36,148 bases of DNA from Candidatus Woesearchaeota archaeon. GTDB taxonomy: Archaea; Nanobdellota; Nanobdellia; Pacearchaeales; GW2011-AR1. A program made the translations under genes and the position numbers. Location: assembly GCA_964588735.1 (NCBI GenBank), contig CAZPQF010000001.1, positions 7,273-43,420 on the forward strand, in the 5' to 3' direction. The notes below the pieces were generated by a model. That model saw only the letters and a list, made by a program, of their open reading frames with translations, did no database searches and had not been told where the DNA came from. Positions 3,110 to 24,961 of this stretch are shown piece after piece. Each line of letters begins with the position of its first letter. Position 1 is the first letter of the stretch.

Positions 3110-3955
3110 ATGCCTTTAAAAAAACATCACAAATATATTATTGGAAGTTTAAGTACTTTAGTAATTATTTATATGATTGTTAGTTCTATTCTTCTGTTTA
3201 TGTTATCAGTAAGAATAAATCAATTAGATATTTCTTTAGATAATAAAATAGAGGCAAATTATCAAGAATTAACAGGAAAAACAAATGAATTAACAAATGT
3301 TATTTTATCAATGCAAAAAAATCAAACATCATTAACACAAGAATTATCAGAATTAAAAGCAACAGCAAGTTCGGATTTTTCAGGAATTATTCAAGATTCA
3401 ATAAATTCAGTAGTTGTAATAGCCACAGATATAAGCCAAGGTTCTGGTTTTTTTATAACAAATCAAGGGCATATTGTAACAAATACACATGTTCTACTTG
3501 GTGCGCATTATGCAAATATAAGAACATATGATAATAGAATTTATGAATCTTTTTTAGTGGGATATAATGAAGAAATGGATATTGCAATTTTAAAAATCAA
3601 AACAAATTATTATAAACCATTAAAATTAGCGAATTCAGACAATGTTAATATAGGGCAAAAAGCAGTTGCATTAGGAAATCCTTATGGTTTATCTTTTACA
3701 GCCACAGAAGGAATAGTTTCTGCAAAAAATAGGAAAGGCCCAAATGAACTTCCATATTATCTGCAAGTAGATGTTCCTTTAAATCCAGGAAACAGCGGGG
3801 GTCCATTAATAGATAAAAGTGGGAAAGTCATAGGAATTAATAATTTTAAAATAGGAATAGGGGAAAGTTTGGGTTTTGCACTTGAATCTAATCATGCAAA
3901 AAGAGTAATTAATGAAATAGCATCGGTAAAAATTAACCAAACATTAGTTTCTTAA
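3110..3955 (+). CDS. Membrane-anchored trypsin-like (HtrA/S1C-type) serine protease with no PDZ domain
   Basis: It has an N-terminal TM helix and a coiled-coil segment. The catalytic triad motifs are VTNTHV (His), DIAILKI (Asp) and GNSGGPLID (Ser). Confidence 0.8.
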   Translation: MPLKKHHKYIIGSLSTLVIIYMIVSSILLFMLSVRINQLDISLDNKIEANYQELTGKTNELTNVILSMQKNQTSLTQELSELKATASSDFSGIIQDSINSVVVIATDISQGSGFFITNQGHIVTNTHVLLGAHYANIRTYDNRIYESFLVGYNEEMDIAILKIKTNYYKPLKLANSDNVNIGQKAVALGNPYGLSFTATEGIVSAKNRKGPNELPYYLQVDVPLNPGNSGGPLIDKSGKVIGINNFKIGIGESLGFALESNHAKRVINEIASVKINQTLVS

Positions 3956-4003: not shown

Positions 4004-5449
4004 ATGTCAAAAAAGATAACTTTTAATATTGACAAAGAAAAAAATTTTTCGAAATGGTATTCTGAAATATTGAATAAAGCAGAAGTTACAGATTTAAGAT
4101 ATAATGTAAAAGGATTTGTTGTTATTCGCCCTTGGGGAGCAATGACAATGGAAAACATGTATTTTCTTTATGAAAAAGAATTGCAAAAAACAGGACATAA
4201 ACCAAGTTTTTTTCCTGTAGTAATTCCTAAAAAAAATTTCTATAAAGAAGCAGAACATGTAAAAGGATTTACACCAGAAGTCTTTTGGCTAGAAAAAATA
4301 AAAGGAGAAGATAAACTTGCACTGCGTCCAACTTCTGAAACAGCAATGTATCAAATGTATTCGTTATGGATCCGTTCATGGAGGGATTTACCATTAAAAA
4401 TATATCAAAGAGCAAATGTTTTTAGATATGAAACAAAAGCTACACGTCCTTTGATAAGGGCAAGAGAATTCTATTGGATTGAAACACATAATTGTTTTGC
4501 AACAAAAAAAGAAGCAGAAAACCAAGTACAAGAAGATATAGAAACAACAGAAAAAATAATGCACCAAAAATTTGGAATTCCATTTTTGCCAATGAAACGT
4601 CCTACCTGGGATAAATTCGCTGGGGCAGTATATACAATAGGAAGCGATGTTTTAATGCCAGACGGAAAATTAATACAACAACCATCAACACATTTATTAG
4701 GACAACATTTTTCAAGAGCATTTAATATTAAATTTAAAAATCAAGACAAAAAAGAAGATTATGTTTGGCAAACTTGTTATGGTCCTGCAATATCAAGAAT
4801 CTTGGCATCAGTAATTTCTACACATGGAGATGATTCAGGTTTAATAATGCCTTATTGTATTTCACCAATTCAAGTAATTGTCATACCTATATTTAATAAA
4901 GAAAATCAAGAAAGAATTCTTGAACAAACAGATAAAATAAAACAAATATTAGAAAAACAAAATATTAAGGTAGAAATAGATGATTCAAGTAAAAGACCTG
5001 GAGAAAAATATTTTTATTGGGAATTAAAGGGAGTTCCATTTAGATTAGAAATAGGAGAAAAAGAACTTAAATCACAAAAATTAACTCTCTTCACAAGAGA
5101 TAACAAGAAAAAAGAAAAAATTTCTATAAAAAATTTAAATAAAATAAATCAATTAGGAAAAGATTTTGATAAAAGATTAAAACAAAAGGCGAATAAATTT
5201 ATAGACAATAAAATAGTTTATTGTAAAAATAAACAAGAAATAAAAAAAACATTAAAAAATAAAAAAATTGCAAAAATAGATTTTTGTTCTACAGAAAAAC
5301 AGGGAATTAAATGTGCTGAATATATTGAAAAACAAGTTAATGCTGAAGTGCGTGGAACCCTTGCTAATAAAAATGAAAAACCTAAAGGAAATTGTGCTAT
5401 TTGTGGAAAAAAAGCTAATAAAGTAGTTTATATTGGTAAAGGCTATTAA
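4004..5449 (+). CDS. proS: Prolyl-tRNA synthetase, archaeal/eukaryal type
   Basis: Motifs seen: FSKWYSEIL, VIRPWG, LRPTSET, FRYE..TRPLIRAREF, and a C-terminal Cys cluster ending ...YIGKGY. The track ORF starts at a TTG (3986). The ATG at 4004 has a TATA-like AAATATTTTAA about 25-30 nt upstream, so I prefer it. Confidence 0.9.
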   Translation: MSKKITFNIDKEKNFSKWYSEILNKAEVTDLRYNVKGFVVIRPWGAMTMENMYFLYEKELQKTGHKPSFFPVVIPKKNFYKEAEHVKGFTPEVFWLEKIKGEDKLALRPTSETAMYQMYSLWIRSWRDLPLKIYQRANVFRYETKATRPLIRAREFYWIETHNCFATKKEAENQVQEDIETTEKIMHQKFGIPFLPMKRPTWDKFAGAVYTIGSDVLMPDGKLIQQPSTHLLGQHFSRAFNIKFKNQDKKEDYVWQTCYGPAISRILASVISTHGDDSGLIMPYCISPIQVIVIPIFNKENQERILEQTDKIKQILEKQNIKVEIDDSSKRPGEKYFYWELKGVPFRLEIGEKELKSQKLTLFTRDNKKKEKISIKNLNKINQLGKDFDKRLKQKANKFIDNKIVYCKNKQEIKKTLKNKKIAKIDFCSTEKQGIKCAEYIEKQVNAEVRGTLANKNEKPKGNCAICGKKANKVVYIGKGY

Positions 5450-11936: not shown

Positions 11937-12608
11937 TTATCTAAAATATCTACTAATCATACGTGCTTTTCTTTTATATTTCTTTTTAATATATAATCCA
12001 AAAATTAATCCGCATAATAAACCCCCTAAATGAGCACTATTGCCTATGGGTAATCCTCCGACTGCAGAAAAAAAAGCTAAAACACCCATTAAAAAGACCA
12101 TTGCAGCCCACATAGGCATTGGAACAATAAAAAATACAAGAACTGGAAGTCTAGGAGTTAAAATTGCTAATAAGCCGCCTAATCCAAAAATAGCTCCGCT
12201 TGCACCTACAGCAAAAGTATTAGGACTGCCAAAAAGACTTATTCCTAATTCAGTATTGCCAAAAGCATAAGACATAGCAATAAATAATAATGAAGCAACT
12301 AATCCAGCTATTAAATAAAAAGATAAAAATCTCTTTCTCCCAATTAATTTTTCCACAAAATTCCCAATAAAAAGTAAAGAGATCATATTAACAAACAAAT
12401 GAGAAATACTTCCATGCATGAACATACTTGTAATAATTGTCCAAATATATTTTCCATTCATAACATTTGAAGGATTTAAAGCAATATAATTAATGAAACT
12501 TTCATTTGAAATAATTATTGGATAAAAAATAAAAAAGAAAATAACATTTATAATTATAATCCAATTAGTATAACTTAATCCCTTTGAACTAAAAAAACCC
12601 GGACTCAT
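11937..12608 (-). CDS. Rhomboid-family intramembrane serine protease
   Basis: Motifs seen: HGSISHLFVNM, GASGAIFG (GxSG), AHLGGLLCG. Its start overlaps the TGA stop of the TFE gene (ATGA overlap). Confidence 0.85.
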   Translation of the reverse strand: MSPGFFSSKGLSYTNWIIIINVIFFFIFYPIIISNESFINYIALNPSNVMNGKYIWTIITSMFMHGSISHLFVNMISLLFIGNFVEKLIGRKRFLSFYLIAGLVASLLFIAMSYAFGNTELGISLFGSPNTFAVGASGAIFGLGGLLAILTPRLPVLVFFIVPMPMWAAMVFLMGVLAFFSAVGGLPIGNSAHLGGLLCGLIFGLYIKKKYKRKARMISRYFR

Positions 12609-13525
12609 TTTTTCTTTTTCCTACTTGATTTTTTCTTAGTTTTCTTAGTCTTTTTCCTGGCAGGTTTTTTAGACTTTTTTTTCTTAGACTTACTTTTCTC
12701 AAATTTTAATTTTGGTTTCTTTTTTACAGACTTTTTCTTACTAGATTTCTTCTTAGATTTTAATTTGGGTTTCTTTTTTACAGACTTTTTCTTTTTCTTA
12801 CTAAATTTATCTTTATTTTTCTTAACAGTTTTTTTCTTTTTGACCAGTTTAATAATTTTTTTTATTTTCTTTTTCTCTTTTTTAGGAACTTTTTTCTTTT
12901 TCTCTTTTTCAGATTTTTTTGTTTTTTTCCTGGATTTTCTTCTCCTTTTTTTTCTTTTTTTAGCTTTCTTTTTTTCTCTTTCAAATTTCTTTCTAGATTT
13001 TTCTTCTATTTCTGAAATTTTTGAATTAACAAAGTCTAAATCTTTTTTTAAATTATTTAAATTTTTTTCTAAATCTCTTATAACTTTAGCATCATCATGC
13101 AATTCATAAACCTTTCCGCATTCAGGGCATGTAAAATTATGAAAAAGAGCATTCTCTTCTGTAATTTCTATTCCACAAGTTTTACAAACATAAAAAGTTT
13201 TTTGTTTTCTGCTAGTTAATTGATTCTTTAATTGCTCTATTTCTTTTTCTAATATTTTCCTAATAAAATATAAAGACTTATCTAATTCAATAGTCCAAAA
13301 ATAAGTATACCATCCCTTTCTTTTATCTTTTTTTCTAGTAAAAGAAACTAATCCGTGTTCAGAAAGTTTGTATAATATATTTCTTACTTGATTTATAGTC
13401 ATATCTAATTTTTTTGCAATTAAGAATTCATTTACATTTTTCTTTCCATATAATAAATCTACGATATCCATAGCAGGTTTTCCACCAATAGTGGATACAA
13501 CATCATTAAGAAGTTTTTTATGCAT
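12605..13525 (-). CDS. tfe: Transcription factor E (TFE alpha-like: winged helix plus zinc ribbon) with a ~130-aa lysine-rich C-terminal tail
   Basis: Winged-helix segment FLIAKKLDMTINQVRNILYKLSEHGLVSF..KGWYTYFWTI. Zinc ribbon CKTCG...CPECG. Residues ~176-306 are almost pure K/S/R/P. Confidence 0.75.
   Translation of the reverse strand: MHKKLLNDVVSTIGGKPAMDIVDLLYGKKNVNEFLIAKKLDMTINQVRNILYKLSEHGLVSFTRKKDKRKGWYTYFWTIELDKSLYFIRKILEKEIEQLKNQLTSRKQKTFYVCKTCGIEITEENALFHNFTCPECGKVYELHDDAKVIRDLEKNLNNLKKDLDFVNSKISEIEEKSRKKFEREKKKAKKRKKRRRKSRKKTKKSEKEKKKKVPKKEKKKIKKIIKLVKKKKTVKKNKDKFSKKKKKSVKKKPKLKSKKKSSKKKSVKKKPKLKFEKSKSKKKKSKKPARKKTKKTKKKSSRKKKK
12703..12792. repeat. Two ~36-nt near-identical direct repeats with a 54-nt period inside the TFE tail coding region
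   Basis: The sequence attttaattt(t/g)ggtttcttttttacagactttttct occurs at 12703-12738 and 12757-12792. It encodes KKKSVKKKPKLK twice. Confidence 0.8.
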
Positions 13526-14851: not shown

Positions 14852-16600
14852 ATGATTAAATTAAACCGCAAACAATTAATTGAAAAATACATTAAATTTT
14901 TTCAGTCTAAAGACCATAAAAAACTTCCGAACTCATCTCTTATTCCAGAAAATGATCCCACAGTATTATTTACAACAGCTGGAATGCAGCCTTTAGTTCC
15001 TTATTTATTGGGGCAAAAACATCCTTTAGGAAAACGTCTCTGTTCTGTTCAAAGATGTATAAGAACAGGAGATATAAAAGAAGTAGGAGACTCTGTTCAT
15101 TTAACTTTTTTTGAGATGTTGGGAAATTGGAGTTTAGGAGATTATTTTAAAAAACAGGCAATAGAAATGAGTTTTGAATTTTTAACAAAACAATTAAAAA
15201 TTCCAAAAGAAAAAATCGCTGTCACTTGTTTTAAAGGGCTTAAAGAAAAAGGAGAAAAAATTCCAAAAGATGAAGAGGCTGCAAAAATTTGGCAATCATT
15301 AGGAATTAAAAAAAATAAAATTAAATTTTTAGGAAAAAAAGATAATTGGTGGGGGCCAGCAGGCAAAACAGGACCTTGCGGACCTGATACAGAAATGTTT
15401 TATATAACAAAAAAGGGGAAAGAAATAGAAATATGGAATGATGTTTTTATGCAATATAATAAAATAGCTTCAGGGGAGTATAAAGAATTAAAACAAAAAA
15501 ATGTAGACACAGGAATGGGAGTAGAAAGAACAATTGCAATTCTAAATAATATAGATGATATATATAAAACAGAGGTTTTTCTTCCAATAATTAAACAAAT
15601 AGAAAAACTTTCTGAAAAATCTTATGCAAAATCTGATAAAGAAACAAAAAGAGCAATGAGGATAATTGCAGACCATATTAAAGCTTCTGTTTTTATTTTA
15701 ACAGAAAAAATTCCTCCTTCAAACACAGAACAAGGATATGTTTTAAGAAGATTAATTAGAAGAAGTATAAGACATGGAAAATTCCTAGAAATAGAAAAGA
15801 ATTTCACAAAACAACTCGCACAAGAAGTTATCAAAATATACGACGATTACCTAGAATTAAAAAATAAAAAAAATAAAAAATTTATTTTAAATGAAATTGA
15901 AAAAGAAGAGAATAAATTTAGGAATACATTAGAAAAAGGGCTTAATAAACTTAAAAAATTAACATCAAAAACAAAAAAACTTTCAGGAAAAAATGCTTTT
16001 TTATTATATCAAAGTTTTGGATTTCCAAAAGAAATGATAATAGAAGAGACTAAAAAAAATAAAATCAAATTTGATGAAAAAGATTTTGACAAAGAACTTA
16101 AAAAACACCAAAAATTATCAAGAACGGCTACACAAGGCAAATTTAAATCAGGATTAGCAGATAAAACTAAACAAACAACAAAACTTCACACAGCAACTCA
16201 TTTATTATTAACAGCACTTCGTTCAGTTTTAAAAGATGATAAAATAGAACAAAAAGGTTCAAATATAACTGCAGAAAGATTAAGATTTGATTTTAATTTT
16301 CCAAGAAAATTAACAAAAGAGGAGATTAAAAAAATAGAGGATTTTGTCAATAAAATAATAAAAACAGGATGTAGTGTTGAAAAACAAGAAATGAAAAAAC
16401 AAAGAGCAATAAAACTTACAAAAGCAAGTTTTGAACACAAATATCCAGATATTGTAACTGTTTATAAAATAGGAAATTATAGTGAAGAAATTTGTGCAGG
16501 CCCACATGTTAAATCTTTATGTGAATTAGGACATTTTAAAATAATAAAAGAAGAATCTTCTTCTGCAGGTATTAGAAGAATTAAAGCAATTTTAGAATAA
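14852..16600 (+). CDS. alaS: Alanyl-tRNA synthetase, minimal 582-aa form (catalytic, tRNA-recognition and editing domains, no C-Ala domain)
   Basis: Motifs seen: DPTVLFTTAGMQP, QRCIRTGD..VGD..HLTFFEMLGNWSLGDYFK, GPCGPDTEMFY, VDTGMGVERT, editing-site HTATHLL and CAGPHV. The ORF stops right after SAGIRRIKAILE. Confidence 0.9.
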   Translation: MIKLNRKQLIEKYIKFFQSKDHKKLPNSSLIPENDPTVLFTTAGMQPLVPYLLGQKHPLGKRLCSVQRCIRTGDIKEVGDSVHLTFFEMLGNWSLGDYFKKQAIEMSFEFLTKQLKIPKEKIAVTCFKGLKEKGEKIPKDEEAAKIWQSLGIKKNKIKFLGKKDNWWGPAGKTGPCGPDTEMFYITKKGKEIEIWNDVFMQYNKIASGEYKELKQKNVDTGMGVERTIAILNNIDDIYKTEVFLPIIKQIEKLSEKSYAKSDKETKRAMRIIADHIKASVFILTEKIPPSNTEQGYVLRRLIRRSIRHGKFLEIEKNFTKQLAQEVIKIYDDYLELKNKKNKKFILNEIEKEENKFRNTLEKGLNKLKKLTSKTKKLSGKNAFLLYQSFGFPKEMIIEETKKNKIKFDEKDFDKELKKHQKLSRTATQGKFKSGLADKTKQTTKLHTATHLLLTALRSVLKDDKIEQKGSNITAERLRFDFNFPRKLTKEEIKKIEDFVNKIIKTGCSVEKQEMKKQRAIKLTKASFEHKYPDIVTVYKIGNYSEEICAGPHVKSLCELGHFKIIKEESSSAGIRRIKAILE

Positions 16601-16614
16601 AACCATCAGAACTA

Positions 16615-17043
16615 TCAAAGAGTCAAACTTTTTAAATTAAATTTTTTAGGATGTAAATGTTCTTCACAATTTCTTTTAATAAAACCTTCTGAAAATTCAA
16701 TCTGTTTAGAATTAAGATTTCTTTTTATAAAGGCTGGTTCAATATATTTTCCGCAATATTCATCATGATGTTGTATTTCTTGATTATTAACCCAATACAT
16801 AACCACTTTTGCAGGATCTCCATTATGGGTTAAATAAGCACAATCTCTCCACCAAACATATTGTATAAATTCATAATGTTCATAACTTGGCCAATCAACA
16901 TTTTCTTTTAAAAAATCAATTAAAGAATCAGAAGACATCCCTGGATTTAAAGATGAAGTATTAATACCGTGTTCTTCTAATTTATTCACTAATAAATTAT
17001 AAAAATAATCTCTCTTATTTTGTGTATGATTATTTTCAGTCAT
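16615..17043 (-). CDS. Hypothetical protein (142 aa, His/Cys/Trp-rich), directly downstream of leuS
   Basis: The ORF starts 10 nt after the leuS stop on the same strand. No family recognised. It ends TGA-TAG. Confidence 0.5.
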   Translation of the reverse strand: MTENNHTQNKRDYFYNLLVNKLEEHGINTSSLNPGMSSDSLIDFLKENVDWPSYEHYEFIQYVWWRDCAYLTHNGDPAKVVMYWVNNQEIQHHDEYCGKYIEPAFIKRNLNSKQIEFSEGFIKRNCEEHLHPKKFNLKSLTL

Positions 17044-17052
17044 TTTTATTTC

Positions 17053-20000
17053 CTATTCCATAAATATCGCCGGCTTATTAGGTTTTGCTTTTTTAGCCCA
17101 GTTATTTGAGTCATATTTTTTCTTGTCTGCAACAGAAAAAATTTCAATTTTCAAATTAGTCCTTTTTCTAATATCTTGGATACTATTTTTATATAACTCT
17201 AATTCCTTAGGCAGAACATAGATATAAGCTCTAGTGGCATATTTACCTTGTTTATCTTTCATTATTTTATTTATATTTTTAATATCCCCAACTAATTTTT
17301 CAACAGCCGCATCTTCTTTTTCAAATTTTTCATTAATCTTCTTCTCATCAACTACAGGCCATTTTTCTAAACTAATAAAATTTTTATTTCCTATTCTATG
17401 CCATAATTCTTCTGTAATATGCGGGCAAAAAACATGTAATAATTTTAAAAAACTTTCTGTATATTTTTTTGAAATTTCTTTATTTTTCAAAGAATCCATT
17501 GATTCAAATAATTCACGAATTTCAATAACAGCTAAATTATATTTAAAATCTTCAATATTTTCTGTTATCTTTTTTATTGTTTTATTAATTTTACTTTCAA
17601 ATCTCTCATTACTTTTTCCAATTTTTTTCTCGATATTTGCAAAATAATCAATAACTTTATTAATAAATTTTAAACTTCCATTAATTCCTTTATCACTCCA
17701 AACAACATCTTTATCAGGACTTGCAGTAGAGACTAAAAACAATCTTGCTGTATCAATACCATATTTTTTAGAGACTTTTTCAGGTAAAACTACATTTCCA
17801 CGAGATTTGCTCATAACAGCGCCGTCAGGACCATGCAACATGCCTTGATTAAATAATTTAATAAAAGGTTCATCACTTTTAATCAAGCCTAAATCTCTTA
17901 AAAATTTGTTATAAAATCTGGCATAAATTAAATGCATACAGGCATGCTCTGCACCGCCAATATATTGATCAACAGGCATCCAATAATTTGCTCTTTTTTT
18001 TTCAAATATTTTTTTTCTATTTTTAGGATCAGCATATCTTAAAAAATACCATGAAGAATTTACAAATGTATCCATTGTATCAGTTTCACGTCGAGCTTTT
18101 CCCTTACATTTAGGACATTTAACATTAACAAAATTTTTATTTGAAAGTAAAGGATTTCCTTTTCCAAATTTAACTTTTTCAGGAAGTTTTACAGGTAATT
18201 GTTTTTCAGGAATTGGAACTATACCGCATTTATCACAATAGACTATTGGAATAGGGGTTCCCCAATATCTTTGACGAGAAATTAACCAATCTTTTAATTT
18301 ATATTGTGTTGTTTCTTTAGCTAATTTTTTGTCTTTTAAATATTTTGTAATTTCTTTTTTAGCTTTTTCATTATTCAAACCATTAAACTTACCAGAATTT
18401 ATTAATTTTCCTTGTTCAATATAAGCTCTTTCATTAATGTTGCCCTTTTCTCCTTTAATTACTCCTTTTATAGGAAGTTTATATTTTTTTGCAAACTCAA
18501 AATCTCTTTGGTCATGTGCTGGAACAGCCATAACCATTCCACTTCCATAATCTGCAACAACAAAATTACCGACCCATATTGGAATTTTTTCATTTGTTAT
18601 AGGATTAATTGAATAACTTCCTGTAAAAACTCCTTGTTTTTCAAGTTCTTCTATATTTTTTTCACTGGTTGATTTTACTTTTGTCAAAAACTTTTCAACC
18701 TGTTTTTTTTGTTTGTCAGTAATTAGATTCATAAGTTGCGGATGTTGTGCGCTTATTACCATAAAAGTAACTCCAAAAAGTGTATCTGGACGTGTTGTAA
18801 ATATCGGCCATTTCTGAACAATTTCATTCAATAATTCTGGAAACTCTTCTGTGCCCATATATCCTTTACAAAAATGCCCATAACCTTTTCCCAAATGAAT
18901 TAATTTTCCACCAAGTTCTTTTTGATATTCATATGCATTAGGAATGTGATAAGATATATCATCATCTGCTGTAAAGATTATAAGTTTATCAAAATTATTT
19001 TTTATATTTAAATCAGCTTTTGAAGCATAAAAATTATTTAATAAATGATTGCTTTCATGACCTGCTTTTCCAGGAGATACTAAAATTAGTTTTTTAATTT
19101 TTTTTCCTGTCTCTGCTAACCATCTAACTAAAAAAGCCCCTCCAGCACTATGCCCAATCAAAATAGTATTTTCATTAACTATTAATTTATCCATAATAGA
19201 TTTCCATTCATCATATTTCGGGGCCCAGGCTGTAGGCATCTCTGGAGTGATAGTTTTAATTCCTCTTTTTTCAAGTTCTCTTTTTAACCATGGAAACCAA
19301 TGATTTAAGCTATGTGGAATATAACCCTTTTCTTTTGTTCTATCTTTAGATGGAGAACCATGAACAATTACAACATTTGAGATTATATTATCAGGAGTTT
19401 CAACCTCAAACATAATCTCTGTTCCATAACTTTTTCCAATCCAATTTTTCTGCATTATTTTAATTCTTTCAGGCCATTTTAATTTTTCAGCATCTTTTAA
19501 TAATTCGTCTGCATATTTTGTAATTTTAAAAAACCATTGTTCTAGATGTTTAATTTCAACTTCTGTATCTTCATGACGCCAGCATTTTCCATTATGAACC
19601 TGTTCATTAGCTAAAACTGTTTTACATTTTTTACACCAATTAACAGGTGCTTTTTTTCTATATGCAAGTCCTTTCTCAAACATTTTAAGAAAAATCCATT
19701 GATCCCATTTATAATAATTTGAATCATGTGTTTTTACAATTCTGCTCCAATCATAACCCAACCCCAATGATTTTTGTTGTTTAATAAAATTTTTAATAGC
19801 ATTTTCAGTAAATTTTTTTGGATGTTGTCCTGCTTTTATTGCAGCATTTTCTGCTGGCAATCCTAAACTATCATAACCCATTGGATATAATACATTAAAA
19901 TTATTCATTCTTTTAAAACGAGCATAAATATCACCTATTGTATAATTAAATGCATGCCCCATATGTAATCCACTTCCACTTGGATATGGAAACATTTCAA

Positions 20001-20130
20001 GAACATAAAATTTCTCTTTTCCTTTTATATTATCTTTAACTTGGAAAATTTTTTTCTTTGCCCATTCTTTCTGCCATTTTCTTTCTATCTTATTAAAATT
20101 GAATTTTGATTTTCCAGTTTTATTTTTCAT
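17053..20130 (-). CDS. leuS: Leucyl-tRNA synthetase (bacterial-type layout) with an embedded alpha/beta serine-hydrolase domain
   Basis: Motifs seen: HMGH (HIGH), the CKKCKT..CWRH zinc cluster, KNWIGKS, TTRPDT and AVPAHDQRDFEFA (CP1 editing), RQRYWGTPIP, the CDKCG..CPKCKG cluster, DTFVNSSWY, VMSKS. About 190 extra residues lie at aa ~250-440. Confidence 0.95.
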   Translation of the reverse strand: MKNKTGKSKFNFNKIERKWQKEWAKKKIFQVKDNIKGKEKFYVLEMFPYPSGSGLHMGHAFNYTIGDIYARFKRMNNFNVLYPMGYDSLGLPAENAAIKAGQHPKKFTENAIKNFIKQQKSLGLGYDWSRIVKTHDSNYYKWDQWIFLKMFEKGLAYRKKAPVNWCKKCKTVLANEQVHNGKCWRHEDTEVEIKHLEQWFFKITKYADELLKDAEKLKWPERIKIMQKNWIGKSYGTEIMFEVETPDNIISNVVIVHGSPSKDRTKEKGYIPHSLNHWFPWLKRELEKRGIKTITPEMPTAWAPKYDEWKSIMDKLIVNENTILIGHSAGGAFLVRWLAETGKKIKKLILVSPGKAGHESNHLLNNFYASKADLNIKNNFDKLIIFTADDDISYHIPNAYEYQKELGGKLIHLGKGYGHFCKGYMGTEEFPELLNEIVQKWPIFTTRPDTLFGVTFMVISAQHPQLMNLITDKQKKQVEKFLTKVKSTSEKNIEELEKQGVFTGSYSINPITNEKIPIWVGNFVVADYGSGMVMAVPAHDQRDFEFAKKYKLPIKGVIKGEKGNINERAYIEQGKLINSGKFNGLNNEKAKKEITKYLKDKKLAKETTQYKLKDWLISRQRYWGTPIPIVYCDKCGIVPIPEKQLPVKLPEKVKFGKGNPLLSNKNFVNVKCPKCKGKARRETDTMDTFVNSSWYFLRYADPKNRKKIFEKKRANYWMPVDQYIGGAEHACMHLIYARFYNKFLRDLGLIKSDEPFIKLFNQGMLHGPDGAVMSKSRGNVVLPEKVSKKYGIDTARLFLVSTASPDKDVVWSDKGINGSLKFINKVIDYFANIEKKIGKSNERFESKINKTIKKITENIEDFKYNLAVIEIRELFESMDSLKNKEISKKYTESFLKLLHVFCPHITEELWHRIGNKNFISLEKWPVVDEKKINEKFEKEDAAVEKLVGDIKNINKIMKDKQGKYATRAYIYVLPKELELYKNSIQDIRKRTNLKIEIFSVADKKKYDSNNWAKKAKPNKPAIFME
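18811..19383 (-). other. In-frame RBBP9/YdeN-type serine hydrolase (Ser_hydrolase alpha/beta fold) domain inside leuS
   Basis: Blocks seen: VVIVHGSP, HWFPWLKRELEKRGIKTITPEMP, TILIGHSAGGAFLVRWLAE (GxSxG; the codons of ILIGHSAG map to 19141-19170), LILVSP, IIFTADDD, GYGHF, EEFPELLNEIV. Confidence 0.8.
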
Positions 20131-20159: not shown

Positions 20160-20453
20160 TTAAATTGTTTGTGTTTTTTGTTCAAGTCTCTGTTTTCTTT
20201 TGAATCTCTCTGCTTTCTTTGCCCGCCCTATTTCAAATTCCTTAATATCTATTTGCGTAGCTTCATCTATAATAAAATCTCCATTATTGGAATGTATCAA
20301 ATTATAGATTCCTTTGATATTATATTGTCTTCCTTTTGAACAAAAATTTCCATCATTATATTTTCCTATCTTTAATGATTCATACCAATCATTCCCAATT
20401 AGATTGCTTATCTTTATTATTTTTCTTGTTTCTCTATTCATTTTTTTCTCCAT
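20160..20453 (-). CDS. Hypothetical protein (97 aa) directly upstream of leuS
   Basis: ORF with a basic C-terminal tail and no recognisable family. An alternative ATG lies 4 codons in. Confidence 0.4.
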   Translation of the reverse strand: MEKKMNRETRKIIKISNLIGNDWYESLKIGKYNDGNFCSKGRQYNIKGIYNLIHSNNGDFIIDEATQIDIKEFEIGRAKKAERFKRKQRLEQKTQTI

Positions 20454-21966: not shown

Positions 21967-22482
21967 ATGACAATAAAAGCAATTTTTACAGGAGAAAATA
22001 TTTTTAGTAATGCAAAAGATGCATTTGCTCTTTATGAGAAAAGCAGATTTGGAGAACAAAAAGCAGGAAAAATAAAATATGCATTAGTTGAAGCATTATT
22101 TTTAACAAATAAAAATAAAGCAGAGATTTATAGTGGAAATAAAAAATTAACATTTGACCAGCTTTTAAGAAAATGTAAGAAAATAGATAAAAAAATAGAA
22201 ACAAAATTTGCTGTTTTCTCAGATTTAAGAGAAAGAGGATATATTGTTAAAACAGCTCTTAAATTTGGAGCAGACCTTAGAGTATATGATAAAGGAAAAA
22301 AACCAGGACAAGCTCACGCAAAATGGATAGTCTTTCCAGTAAATGAAAATCAGTCTCTTACTTGGCATGAATTTTCCTCAAAAAACAGAGTTGCTCATAG
22401 CACTAAGAAAAATCTTCTAATTGCCATCGTCGATGAAGAGGGAGATTGTACATATTACCAAGTCTCATGGATAAAGCCCTAA
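21967..22482 (+). CDS. endA: tRNA-splicing endonuclease, short single-unit (alpha-type) subunit of 171 aa
   Basis: Motifs seen: LVEALFL, LRERGYIVKTALKFGADLRVYDKG...AHAKWIVFPV, and RVAHSTKKNLLIAIVD. The Y/H/K catalytic contexts are typical of EndA. Confidence 0.85.
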   Translation: MTIKAIFTGENIFSNAKDAFALYEKSRFGEQKAGKIKYALVEALFLTNKNKAEIYSGNKKLTFDQLLRKCKKIDKKIETKFAVFSDLRERGYIVKTALKFGADLRVYDKGKKPGQAHAKWIVFPVNENQSLTWHEFSSKNRVAHSTKKNLLIAIVDEEGDCTYYQVSWIKP

Positions 22483-24745: not shown

Positions 24746-24782
24746 ACTTTTTAAATGTCTGCTTGCTTCTAAAATCAGTCAT

Positions 24783-24875
24783 GGCTCTGTAGCTCAGCGT
24801 TAGAGCGCCTGTCTCATGAACAGAGGTGATAATTGAGAGAGCAGGAGGTCGGGAGTTAAACTCTCCTCAGAGCCA
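24783..24875 (+). tRNA. tRNA with CAT anticodon (elongator Met or Ile2) carrying a ~21-nt non-canonical intron (about 24824-24844) at the anticodon-stem/variable-loop junction
   Basis: It reads GGCTCTG-TA-GCTC-AGCGTTA-GAGC-G-CCTGT-CTCATGA-ACAG / AGGTGATAATTGAGAGAGCAG / G-AGGTC-GGGAG-TTAAACT-CTCCT-CAGAGCC-A. Removing the insert gives a perfect CCTGT/ACAGG anticodon stem. The D loop lacks the usual GG and the T loop has A where C56 is expected. Confidence 0.7.
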
Positions 24876-24961
24876 TTTTATTTCCTAAAACATATACCCG
24901 AACATAATTAACTATTTAAGCAATTATTTTTATTTATTATTATAAAAACAGGTATATACAA

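Follow-up and report, generated by a model that had tools for sequence, protein, structure and literature searches.

A complete RBBP9/YdeN-type serine hydrolase domain nested in the CP1 editing domain of a leucyl-tRNA synthetase from a DPANN archaeon

We analyzed the leucyl-tRNA synthetase (LeuRS) gene of a Candidatus Woesearchaeota archaeon and a hydrolase domain inserted in it. The gene lies in a stretch of 36,148 nucleotides (assembly GCA_964588735.1, contig CAZPQF010000001.1, positions 7,273 to 43,420 of the forward strand), which is referred to below as the window; it has a GC content of 26%, and positions are counted from its first letter. The initial annotation had described a LeuRS of 1025 aa with an RBBP9/YdeN-type alpha/beta-hydrolase in its reading frame, in a host of DPANN type. 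All the landmarks it named (HMGH, both Cys clusters, TTRPDT, AVPAHDQRD and VMSKS) were found, the hydrolase scored above the cutoff for PF06821 in a Pfam check with RBBP9 and YdeN as the best sequence and structure matches, and the homologues bear the names of Pace-, Woese- and Nanoarchaeota. The features are listed in Table 1.

The synthetase and the domain nested in it

The protein belongs to the bacterial type of LeuRS, with 940.9 bits for the NCBIfam model TIGR00396 (cutoff 548.4); the archaeal-type model TIGR00395 gave 231 bits, below its cutoff of 648.5. A full-length AlphaFold model (predicted local distance difference test, pLDDT, 88.7; predicted template modeling score, pTM, 0.77; pLDDT 76-95 across the insert) superposes on the LeuRS of T. 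thermophilus, N. gonorrhoeae and E. coli with TMt 0.75-0.82. About 197 residues take the place of the 4-residue beta-hairpin turn at the start of CP1, which corresponds to the turn 239-242 of T. thermophilus LeuRS: the N-terminal flank of the insert aligns with residues 190-238 of that protein and the C-terminal flank with residues 243-439. In the full-length model a strand (233-244), the hydrolase (252-437) and a second strand (440-445) follow one another. The hydrolase thus sits inside CP1 itself, at the turn of its first beta-hairpin, and not next to the editing domain or at its hinge, as had been supposed at first. The limits given for it also need correction: the interval 18811-19383 matches exactly the aa 250-440 it was said to encode, but the true inserted segment is slightly longer (aa 244-440).

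Table 1. Features of the window (homologues and embedded copies as specified in the text).
Feature	Coordinates	Strand	Basis
LeuRS, complete open reading frame (ORF), 1025 aa, bacterial type with nested hydrolase	17053..20130	-	ORF list; TIGR00396
LeuRS N-terminal catalytic half, aa 1-243, ending with the first CP1 strand ...GTEIMFEV	19402..20130	-	Pfam tRNA-synt_1, aa 18-231
HMGH (HIGH motif), aa 56-59	19954-19965	-	H56, G58, H59 invariant in 91 homologues
Inserted segment, aa 244-440: 7-residue N-linker, complete RBBP9/YdeN serine-hydrolase domain, 2-residue C-linker	18811..19401	-	Insert-free relatives and T. thermophilus LeuRS
HG motif, H257-G258, predicted oxyanion-hole element	19357..19362	-	H257 in 98/99 embedded copies
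Pfam PF06821 Ser_hydrolase match, aa 269-421	18868..19326	-	E 1.2e-11, 45.3 bits, gathering cutoff 22
Nucleophile Ser328 codon, GHSAG elbow	19147..19149	-	Ser in 99/99 embedded copies
Catalytic acid Asp391 codon	18958..18960	-	Asp 68, Glu 30, Ser 1 of 99 embedded copies
Catalytic His419 codon (GHF)	18874..18876	-	His in 99/99 embedded copies
Rest of CP1 editing domain, aa 441-610	18301..18810	-	Pfam PF13603, aa 439-598, E 3.8e-63
T-rich TTRPDT, aa 445-450	18781-18798	-	T445, T446, R447, D449, T450 invariant in 91 homologues
HDQRD, aa 539-543 (AVPAHDQRD, aa 535-543)	18502-18516	-	H539, D540, R542, D543 invariant in 91 homologues
Site 2 loop of CP1, aa 559-568 KGEKGNINER, after AHDQRD...K.VIK; empty in the window	18427..18456	-	Insertion mapping, 120 homologues
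LeuRS C-terminal catalytic half, anticodon-binding and C-terminal domains	17053..18300	-	Pfam Anticodon_1, aa 844-961
VMSKS (KMSKS motif), aa 772-776	17803-17817	-	M773, S774, K775, S776 invariant in 91 homologues
Alanyl-tRNA synthetase (AlaRS), compact, 582 aa, tail-to-tail with LeuRS	14852-16600	+	
TFE-alpha, beyond AlaRS	12605-13525	-	
tRNA-splicing endonuclease, near LeuRS	21967-22482		

The reading frame of the insert contains neither a stop codon nor a frameshift, no Hint/intein domain was matched by Pfam in the protein, and the residues at its ends (E244 first; Q439-K440 last, then W441) are not those of intein junctions. The initial annotation had likewise noted no stop codon, frameshift or intein junction residues, and an intein was rejected because of the missing Hint match and the wrong junction residues. 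The GC content at third codon positions is 0.147 in the insert and 0.148 in the rest of the gene, and composition gave no signal of a recent foreign acquisition. The first Met within the insert is M298, and the start Met of stand-alone hydrolases is replaced in the embedded copies, which should therefore be translatable only through the LeuRS frame; separate translation of the insert was rejected for these reasons.

The catalytic and editing parts of the host enzyme were compared across 91 homologues, insert-bearing and insert-free together. Besides the motif residues of Table 1, C166, C169 and C183 of the Zn cluster in the N-terminal half are invariant (the second Cys cluster is C632/C635/C672/C675), and the synthetic and editing motifs are all intact despite the insert. 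No backbone position separated insert-bearing from insert-free LeuRS beyond the permutation null (maximum Jensen-Shannon divergence, JSD, 0.41; null mean maximum 0.59), and no selective relaxation of CP1 was detected in insert-bearing LeuRS. Since the CP1 residues are invariant and CP1 shows no relaxation, the hydrolase is not a substitute for a decayed editing site, and this possibility was ruled out.

The identity of the insert is well defined and far beyond chance similarity. Excised from the LeuRS it matches PF06821 with E 4.4e-13 (49.9 bits), and the solved structures closest to it in sequence are those of B. subtilis YdeN (1UXO; E 1.9e-11) and of human RBBP9 (2QS9/7OEX; E 1e-8). A domain-only AlphaFold model (pLDDT 92.2, pTM 0.90) retrieved RBBP9 or YdeN as its top seven Foldseek matches (TM 0.76-0.86, E about 1e-12 to 6e-10), and the next fold followed at E 4.5e-7, a gap of about five orders of magnitude. 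Compared with the known editing folds (CP1, INS/YbaK, AlaX, N2 and DTD), the insert matched only alpha/beta-hydrolase families. GHS328, D391 and H419 align with S75, D138 and H165 of RBBP9; the intact triad proposed earlier was thus right in its serine and histidine, and its acid, previously given as the whole run D389-391, is narrowed to D391 by the RBBP9 alignment. On the basis of what is known of alpha/beta-hydrolases, the HG motif H257-G258 is predicted to be an element of the oxyanion hole. The nucleophile and the histidine occur in all of the 99 embedded copies (see below), and the acid is kept as Asp or Glu in 98, at a mean pairwise identity among these copies of only 41%. Such retention of the triad and the HG motif indicates that the active site is under selection.

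Valacyclovir is an amino-acid ester of a nucleoside analogue. RBBP9 is also cited as an enzyme that activates this compound. Human RBBP9, the only member of the family with a defined activity, is an aminopeptidase that forms acyl-enzymes with a single residue (Leu, Ile, Phe, Tyr, Trp) and requires a free alpha-amine, which is recognized by Glu108, Tyr99 and Ser76 (PMC8866121). The counterpart of S76 in the insert is A329 and varies among the embedded copies (A/C/L/R), and in the alignment Y99-E108 falls opposite the stretch of the domain with the highest variability and the lowest confidence; in general, the most variable parts of the insert are the pocket-forming loops aa 264-273 and 354-373. 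The alpha-amine-binding residues are not demonstrably conserved, and the aminopeptidase specificity of RBBP9 would not be transferable to the insert on this alignment.

Distribution, further modules and exchange of the cassette

The relatives were sampled as the best 120 LeuRS clusters from a search with the full-length protein. A PF06821 insert of 170-205 aa is present at exactly the same junction in 99 of them; these clusters derive from NCBI, JGI, ENA and Logan assemblies (with the names of Pace-, Woese- and Nanoarchaeota mentioned above), include an NCBI protein identical to the LeuRS of the window (P0121), and are annotated just as 'leucine--tRNA ligase' or 'class I tRNA ligase family protein', with the Pfam match already in the databases. 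Of the remaining 21 clusters, 19 are without any hydrolase (about 810-845 aa, with a turn of 4-9 residues; such insert-free relatives share 69-73% identity with the window protein where the sequences align). In the other two, P0156 and P0163, the hydrolase sits at a second CP1 site instead, and there is none at the first. In GTDB representative genomes, which were scanned with peptide patterns derived from the query (not an unbiased census of DPANN LeuRS with the insert), the architecture was seen in Woesearchaeota, in one complete Pacearchaeota genome, in Nanoarchaeia, and in one bacterium of the Candidate Phyla Radiation (CPR). In this bacterium (Parcubacteria group bacterium GW2011_GWA2_51_10, LCQS01000001.1; locus L017, 2383-5760) a LeuRS of 1125 aa combines PF06821 at site 1 with a NUDIX domain at site 2. 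The design thus spans bacteria and archaea with ultrasmall genomes. In one further relative (L001, 5685-7791; GCA_030630265.1, DAOVNK010000018.1) the LeuRS is called as two overlapping genes, because the hydrolase cassette contains a poly-A run with a frameshift, which is either a sequencing error or a sign of a decaying cassette.

Literature searches found no published description of LeuRS with hydrolase or NUDIX inserts. We regard the architecture as a real, widespread and apparently undescribed variant of domain organization in aminoacyl-tRNA synthetases (aaRS). The earlier view that it is undescribed therefore stands as far as publications are concerned, but the insert is no peculiarity of this genome, and the condition that was to refute the claim (an insert widespread and already annotated in LeuRS families) is half borne out.

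Large insertions across the 120 homologues fall in two hot-spots, both of them surface loops of CP1. Site 2 holds, in addition to the two hydrolases already mentioned, a NUDIX domain of about 145 aa with an intact Nudix box in 11 clusters (P0130, P0137, P0146, P0160, P0161, P0176, P0190, P0200, P0213, P0214 and P0238), and in 11 others (P0132, P0159, P0166, P0237, P0232, P0239, P0189, P0236, P0209, P0211 and P0225) an unrecognized domain of about 105-130 aa (motifs ...EKS...DKDWGKFFRV...FLEKNLL...GGAWYADS...EQLD), for which there was no Pfam match. Site 1 is variable as well: P0190 has two tandem hydrolases there (and NUDIX at site 2), P0229 has the unrecognized domain ahead of the hydrolase, and a Nanoarchaeia LeuRS (isolate STA_79; L020, 2386-5400) has a HAD-like module of about 135 aa, the HAD_2 score of which (21.7 bits) is just under the Pfam cutoff of 23.8. 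The extra domain of P0229 is flanked by a repeated 'VAGES' peptide, which suggests a duplication at insertion. With 24 changes on the backbone tree (null 23.3), the modules at site 2 are scattered to the same extent as randomly assigned labels, and absence at site 1 needs about 12 changes, both figures being qualitative because the tree was built by neighbor-joining (NJ) and has no support values.

The hydrolase is not confined to LeuRS. It is nested mid-protein in UvrB (P0264, aa 407-593), in the GTPase EngA/Der (P0293, aa 177-366) and in a glycosyltransferase of family GT2 (P0246, aa 209-366), and in these three hosts the aligned copies retain both the nucleophilic Ser and the catalytic His. 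Fusions of the hydrolase to YdjC (P0308), NUDIX (P0253/P0256/P0107), His_Phos_1 (P0099) or a second hydrolase occur as well. LeuRS accounts for at least 10 of the approximately 20 multi-domain representatives of the hydrolase.

A search with the insert gave 980 matches; of the 120 best ones listed, nearly all are stand-alone DPANN/CPR proteins of about 190 aa, and the best of them (P0001) is 64% identical and has an unrelated gene neighborhood. This word-indexed search, with a query of 242 aa (insert plus junctions), listed only short proteins and fragments and missed full-length LeuRS, even P0121; this kind of search seems to under-sample long proteins for short queries, and the absence of other hosts there is uninformative. 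An exhaustive profile search of 1.84 billion representatives recovered 3080 members of the family, mostly stand-alone. Identity between stand-alone DPANN/CPR members and embedded copies reaches 64-76%, and the two kinds differ at the extreme termini only, i.e., in the start Met and in the C-terminal end, which give way to linkers. No embedded-specific core residues were found (JSD <=0.31; permutation-null maximum 0.34).

Backbone and insert identity are not correlated (r = -0.02; Mantel test not significant), and for 27 of 97 embedded copies the nearest neighbor is a stand-alone protein. The domain tree requires about 26 switches between the embedded and the stand-alone state; NJ trees lack support values and are used qualitatively, and the weight rests on pairs of high identity. 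The backbones of P0135 and P0164 are 94.6% identical and their inserts 52%, those of P0223 and P0226 94.3% and 51%, and in such close pairs the collapse of identity falls exactly at the insert junctions. For about 7 kb, the DNA of two syntenic loci (L003 and L004) shows 90-97% identity; the exception is a cassette of about 630 bp (4681-5310 in both), where identity is 49-73%. Another syntenic pair (L085 and L086) differs by a swapped cassette (L086, about 2161-2790) and by a NUDIX block of about 490 bp that is present in only one of them (about 3129-3616). No direct repeats or target-site duplications were obvious at this NUDIX indel, and no flanking repeats were evident at the differences within either pair. 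The histories of backbone and insert are uncoupled, with the insert behaving as an autonomous cassette, and the hydrolase is swapped independently of the LeuRS backbone, probably by recombination.

Interpretation and alternatives

We interpret the insert as an active passenger enzyme, i.e., a whole RBBP9/YdeN hydrolase for which LeuRS serves as a permissive carrier, and we assign this reading a probability of roughly 0.6. An entire hydrolase, beginning near its start codon and running through to its final residue, would have been spliced in frame into the 4-residue hairpin turn of CP1, and the product would be a single polypeptide with one domain inside another. The LeuRS, retaining its synthetic site, its Zn clusters and the CP1 pocket, would charge and proofread tRNA-Leu as usual. 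The hydrolase would fold alone, and Ser328, His419 and Asp391, together with the HG oxyanion element, would cleave a small ester or amide substrate, presumably by the same chemistry as the abundant stand-alone paralogues of about 190 aa in DPANN and CPR; by analogy with RBBP9, the substrate may contain an acyl group with a free alpha-amine. The other partners of the hydrolase (NUDIX, YdjC, GT2 and His-phosphatase) point equally to nucleotide or sugar housekeeping. LeuRS would then mainly be a permissive, conserved and constitutively expressed carrier, the two CP1 surface loops of which may be occupied by small hydrolase modules (the serine hydrolase, NUDIX, the HAD-like module and the unrecognized domain) that are gained, lost and replaced via recombination without any tie to the backbone of the synthetase. 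Among the options considered in the initial annotation, the one that fits best is a hydrolase that is tethered to the synthetase and acts on a substrate of its own. The data show the architecture and how widely it occurs, the fold, the conserved motifs, the replacement of cassettes and the variety of hosts, whereas catalytic activity, independence of LeuRS function and the class of substrate are inferred.

Several observations weigh against a pure carrier and speak for a hydrolase that is functionally coupled to LeuRS, i.e., a second, swappable hydrolytic site for LeuRS ligands, which might act on mis- or N-blocked aminoacyl-tRNA-Leu, on non-cognate aminoacyl-adenylates, or on aminoacyl-nucleotide mimics inhibiting LeuRS. 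LeuRS is by far the commonest host of the hydrolase. Two different loops of CP1 have been entered, the architecture is found in archaea (DPANN) as well as in a bacterium (CPR), and this recurrence hints at a LeuRS-specific advantage. Within CP1, a few residues separate the insert from the T-rich strand downstream of it, which forms part of the lining of the editing pocket, and the chemistry of RBBP9, which acts on acyl groups with a free alpha-amine including Leu and Ile (PMC8866121), by analogy resembles the hydrolysis of aminoacyl-tRNA or aminoacyl-adenylates; the citation of RBBP9 for valacyclovir activation points in the same direction. NUDIX co-occurs with the hydrolase in LeuRS and in stand-alone fusions, and the strong differences between cassettes whose backbones are nearly identical would agree with diversifying pressure and could reflect selection, not neutral recombination. 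Variability peaks in the two pocket-forming loops. The NUDIX and HAD-like modules would in that case contribute related nucleotide-side chemistry, and cassette turnover would be the outcome of an arms race. We nevertheless consider the coupling rather improbable: with invariant CP1 editing residues there is nothing to replace, no signature sets the embedded copies apart from stand-alone enzymes, LeuRS backbones show no adaptation to the insert, close relatives do without it, UvrB, EngA and GT2 also harbor this hydrolase as a nested domain and YdjC is fused to it, and the alpha-amine contacts of RBBP9 are not demonstrably conserved (the S76 position is variable, e.g., A/C/L, and the E108 region hypervariable). 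The specific proposal of a second pre- or post-transfer deacylase, made in the initial annotation, is weakened because there is no co-adaptation and because the domain has other hosts; it is further disfavored by the stand-alone-like character of the domain, by its independent swapping, and by the unrelated modules in the same loops. A new proofreading mechanism is thus less likely than first thought. A more general version, in which CP1 of ultrasmall episymbionts, both DPANN archaea and CPR bacteria, would be a docking platform for fast-exchanged small hydrolases (the serine hydrolase, NUDIX and the HAD-like module) acting on LeuRS-associated ligands and would bear the footprint of an arms race, is unlikely; its targets might be N-blocked or unusual aminoacyl-tRNA-Leu that CP1 cannot handle, or aminoacyl-nucleotide mimics that poison LeuRS.

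The remaining explanations seem weaker than the passenger enzyme for different reasons. The insert might be a selfish or neutral hitch-hiker with the population biology of an intein, without splicing, that persists since only a precise in-frame deletion restores the essential gene and that spreads by homologous recombination via the conserved flanks. Hosts that are conserved housekeeping genes (LeuRS, UvrB, EngA and GT2), the junction-precise replacement of cassettes, the scattered presence and absence on the backbone tree (12 changes at site 1, and a random-like pattern at site 2) and the frameshift inside the cassette of L001 would all agree with such an element. This explanation is limited by the strong conservation of the triad, as catalytic residues kept in 98-99 of 99 embedded copies at 41% mean identity imply selection on activity; no endonuclease or other mobility function is associated with the insert, stand-alone copies far outnumber nested ones, and we hold it to be improbable. 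DPANN and CPR organisms lack most amino-acid biosynthesis, and an aminopeptidase or aminoacyl-esterase that frees Leu and other amino acids from host-derived peptides beside LeuRS could help an auxotrophic episymbiont. That RBBP9 is an aminopeptidase trapping Leu, Ile and aromatic residues (PMC8866121) would suit such salvage, but free leucine diffuses, so that tethering brings no obvious kinetic gain, the RBBP9 substrate-binding residues are not conserved in the insert, and neither the NUDIX, HAD-like and unrecognized modules in the same loops nor the nesting in UvrB, EngA and GT2 would be explained; we regard salvage as very improbable. Finally, the insert might be an artefact or dead, i.e., an assembly chimera, a pseudogene, or an element removed by intein or RNA splicing, with no fusion protein being made. 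The frameshifted relative L001 and the tRNA-splicing endonuclease gene nearby could be quoted in its favor, and RNA-level (bulge-helix-bulge) splicing was considered with this gene in mind; it is unlikely given that frame and triad are kept in 99 homologues. A chimera is not viable because more than 100 independent protein clusters, drawn from the four data sources, show this architecture in frame, and NCBI has a record of an identical protein (P0121); conserved triad residues, the lack of Hint/intein domains and junction residues, the lost start Met and a codon composition identical to that of the host gene argue in the same sense, and assembly chimera and pseudogene were both rejected. The probability of an artefact is negligible.

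Genomic context, significance and relation to known systems

Of the genes next to LeuRS (Table 1), the order LeuRS/AlaRS/TFE-alpha is common to L003, and its LeuRS/AlaRS part to L085 and L086; in L001, a tRNA-splicing endonuclease gene lies directly upstream of LeuRS. The small ORFs flanking LeuRS (16615-17043 and 20160-20453) had no Pfam match, and no second copy of the hydrolase was found within the 36-kb window. A tRNA-Met (CAT) gene at 24782-24876 (+ strand) is 95 nt long, which suggests an intron and is consistent with the archaeal context and the splicing endonuclease nearby.

As far as we found, a synthetase with a complete, catalytically intact hydrolase nested in its editing domain was not known. 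Most of the nearest 120 LeuRS clusters have this design, and a CPR bacterium has it too. These proteins amount to a natural, replicated experiment in domain insertion, in which two CP1 loops accept insertions of about 110-370 residues with several different folds, a tolerance that is relevant to aaRS engineering and to CP1 movement. The cassette-like exchange of a whole enzyme domain in an essential gene between near-identical genomes represents an unusual genome flux for minimal genomes, and the partners (LeuRS, NUDIX, YdjC, His-phosphatase, GT2, UvrB and EngA) offer a handle on the function of prokaryotic RBBP9/YdeN proteins. Should aminoacyl-tRNA, aminoacyl-adenylates or LeuRS inhibitors prove to be among the targets of the hydrolase, a new layer of translational quality control or resistance would be added.

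With RBBP9/YdeN (PF06821; 2QS9, 7OEX, 1UXO) the nested domain shares the lid-less alpha/beta-hydrolase fold of about 190 aa, the GHSxG elbow and the equivalent Asp and His; the known members, in contrast, are free proteins, and the copy in the window is just 22-27% identical to the solved structures. Compared with bacterial-type LeuRS (T. thermophilus 1H3N, E. coli 4AQ7/4ARC), the catalytic, Zn and editing motifs, the domain order and the fold are the same, whereas a canonical turn of 4-6 residues is replaced by a 197-residue enzyme, and relatives fill the second CP1 loop as well. Haloarchaea are a described case of archaea with a bacterial-type LeuRS (PMC4005665). The 'CP1 hairpin' of PMC4138327 is a different element, namely the Zn-containing neck. 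According to its family listing, NCBIfam NF040702 (isoleucine--tRNA ligase, N-acetyltransferase domain-containing) likewise joins a class Ia synthetase to an unrelated small-molecule enzyme domain, but that domain is a GNAT and not an alpha/beta-hydrolase, and the window protein reaches only 101.7 bits against a cutoff of 1999.

Inteins resemble the insert in being in-frame, domain-sized insertions at conserved sites of essential genes, with patchy presence and lateral replacement via conserved flanks. The insert differs from them in having no Hint domain, no Cys, Ser or Thr at position 1, no His-Asn plus nucleophile at the C-terminal junction and no homing endonuclease, and it is expected to stay in the mature protein. 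Segmentally variable genes, as outlined in PMC387263, also combine a conserved gene with a sharply bounded, fast-changing segment; set against that outline, the variable segment in LeuRS is an entire exchangeable enzyme domain and not a region of the host fold.

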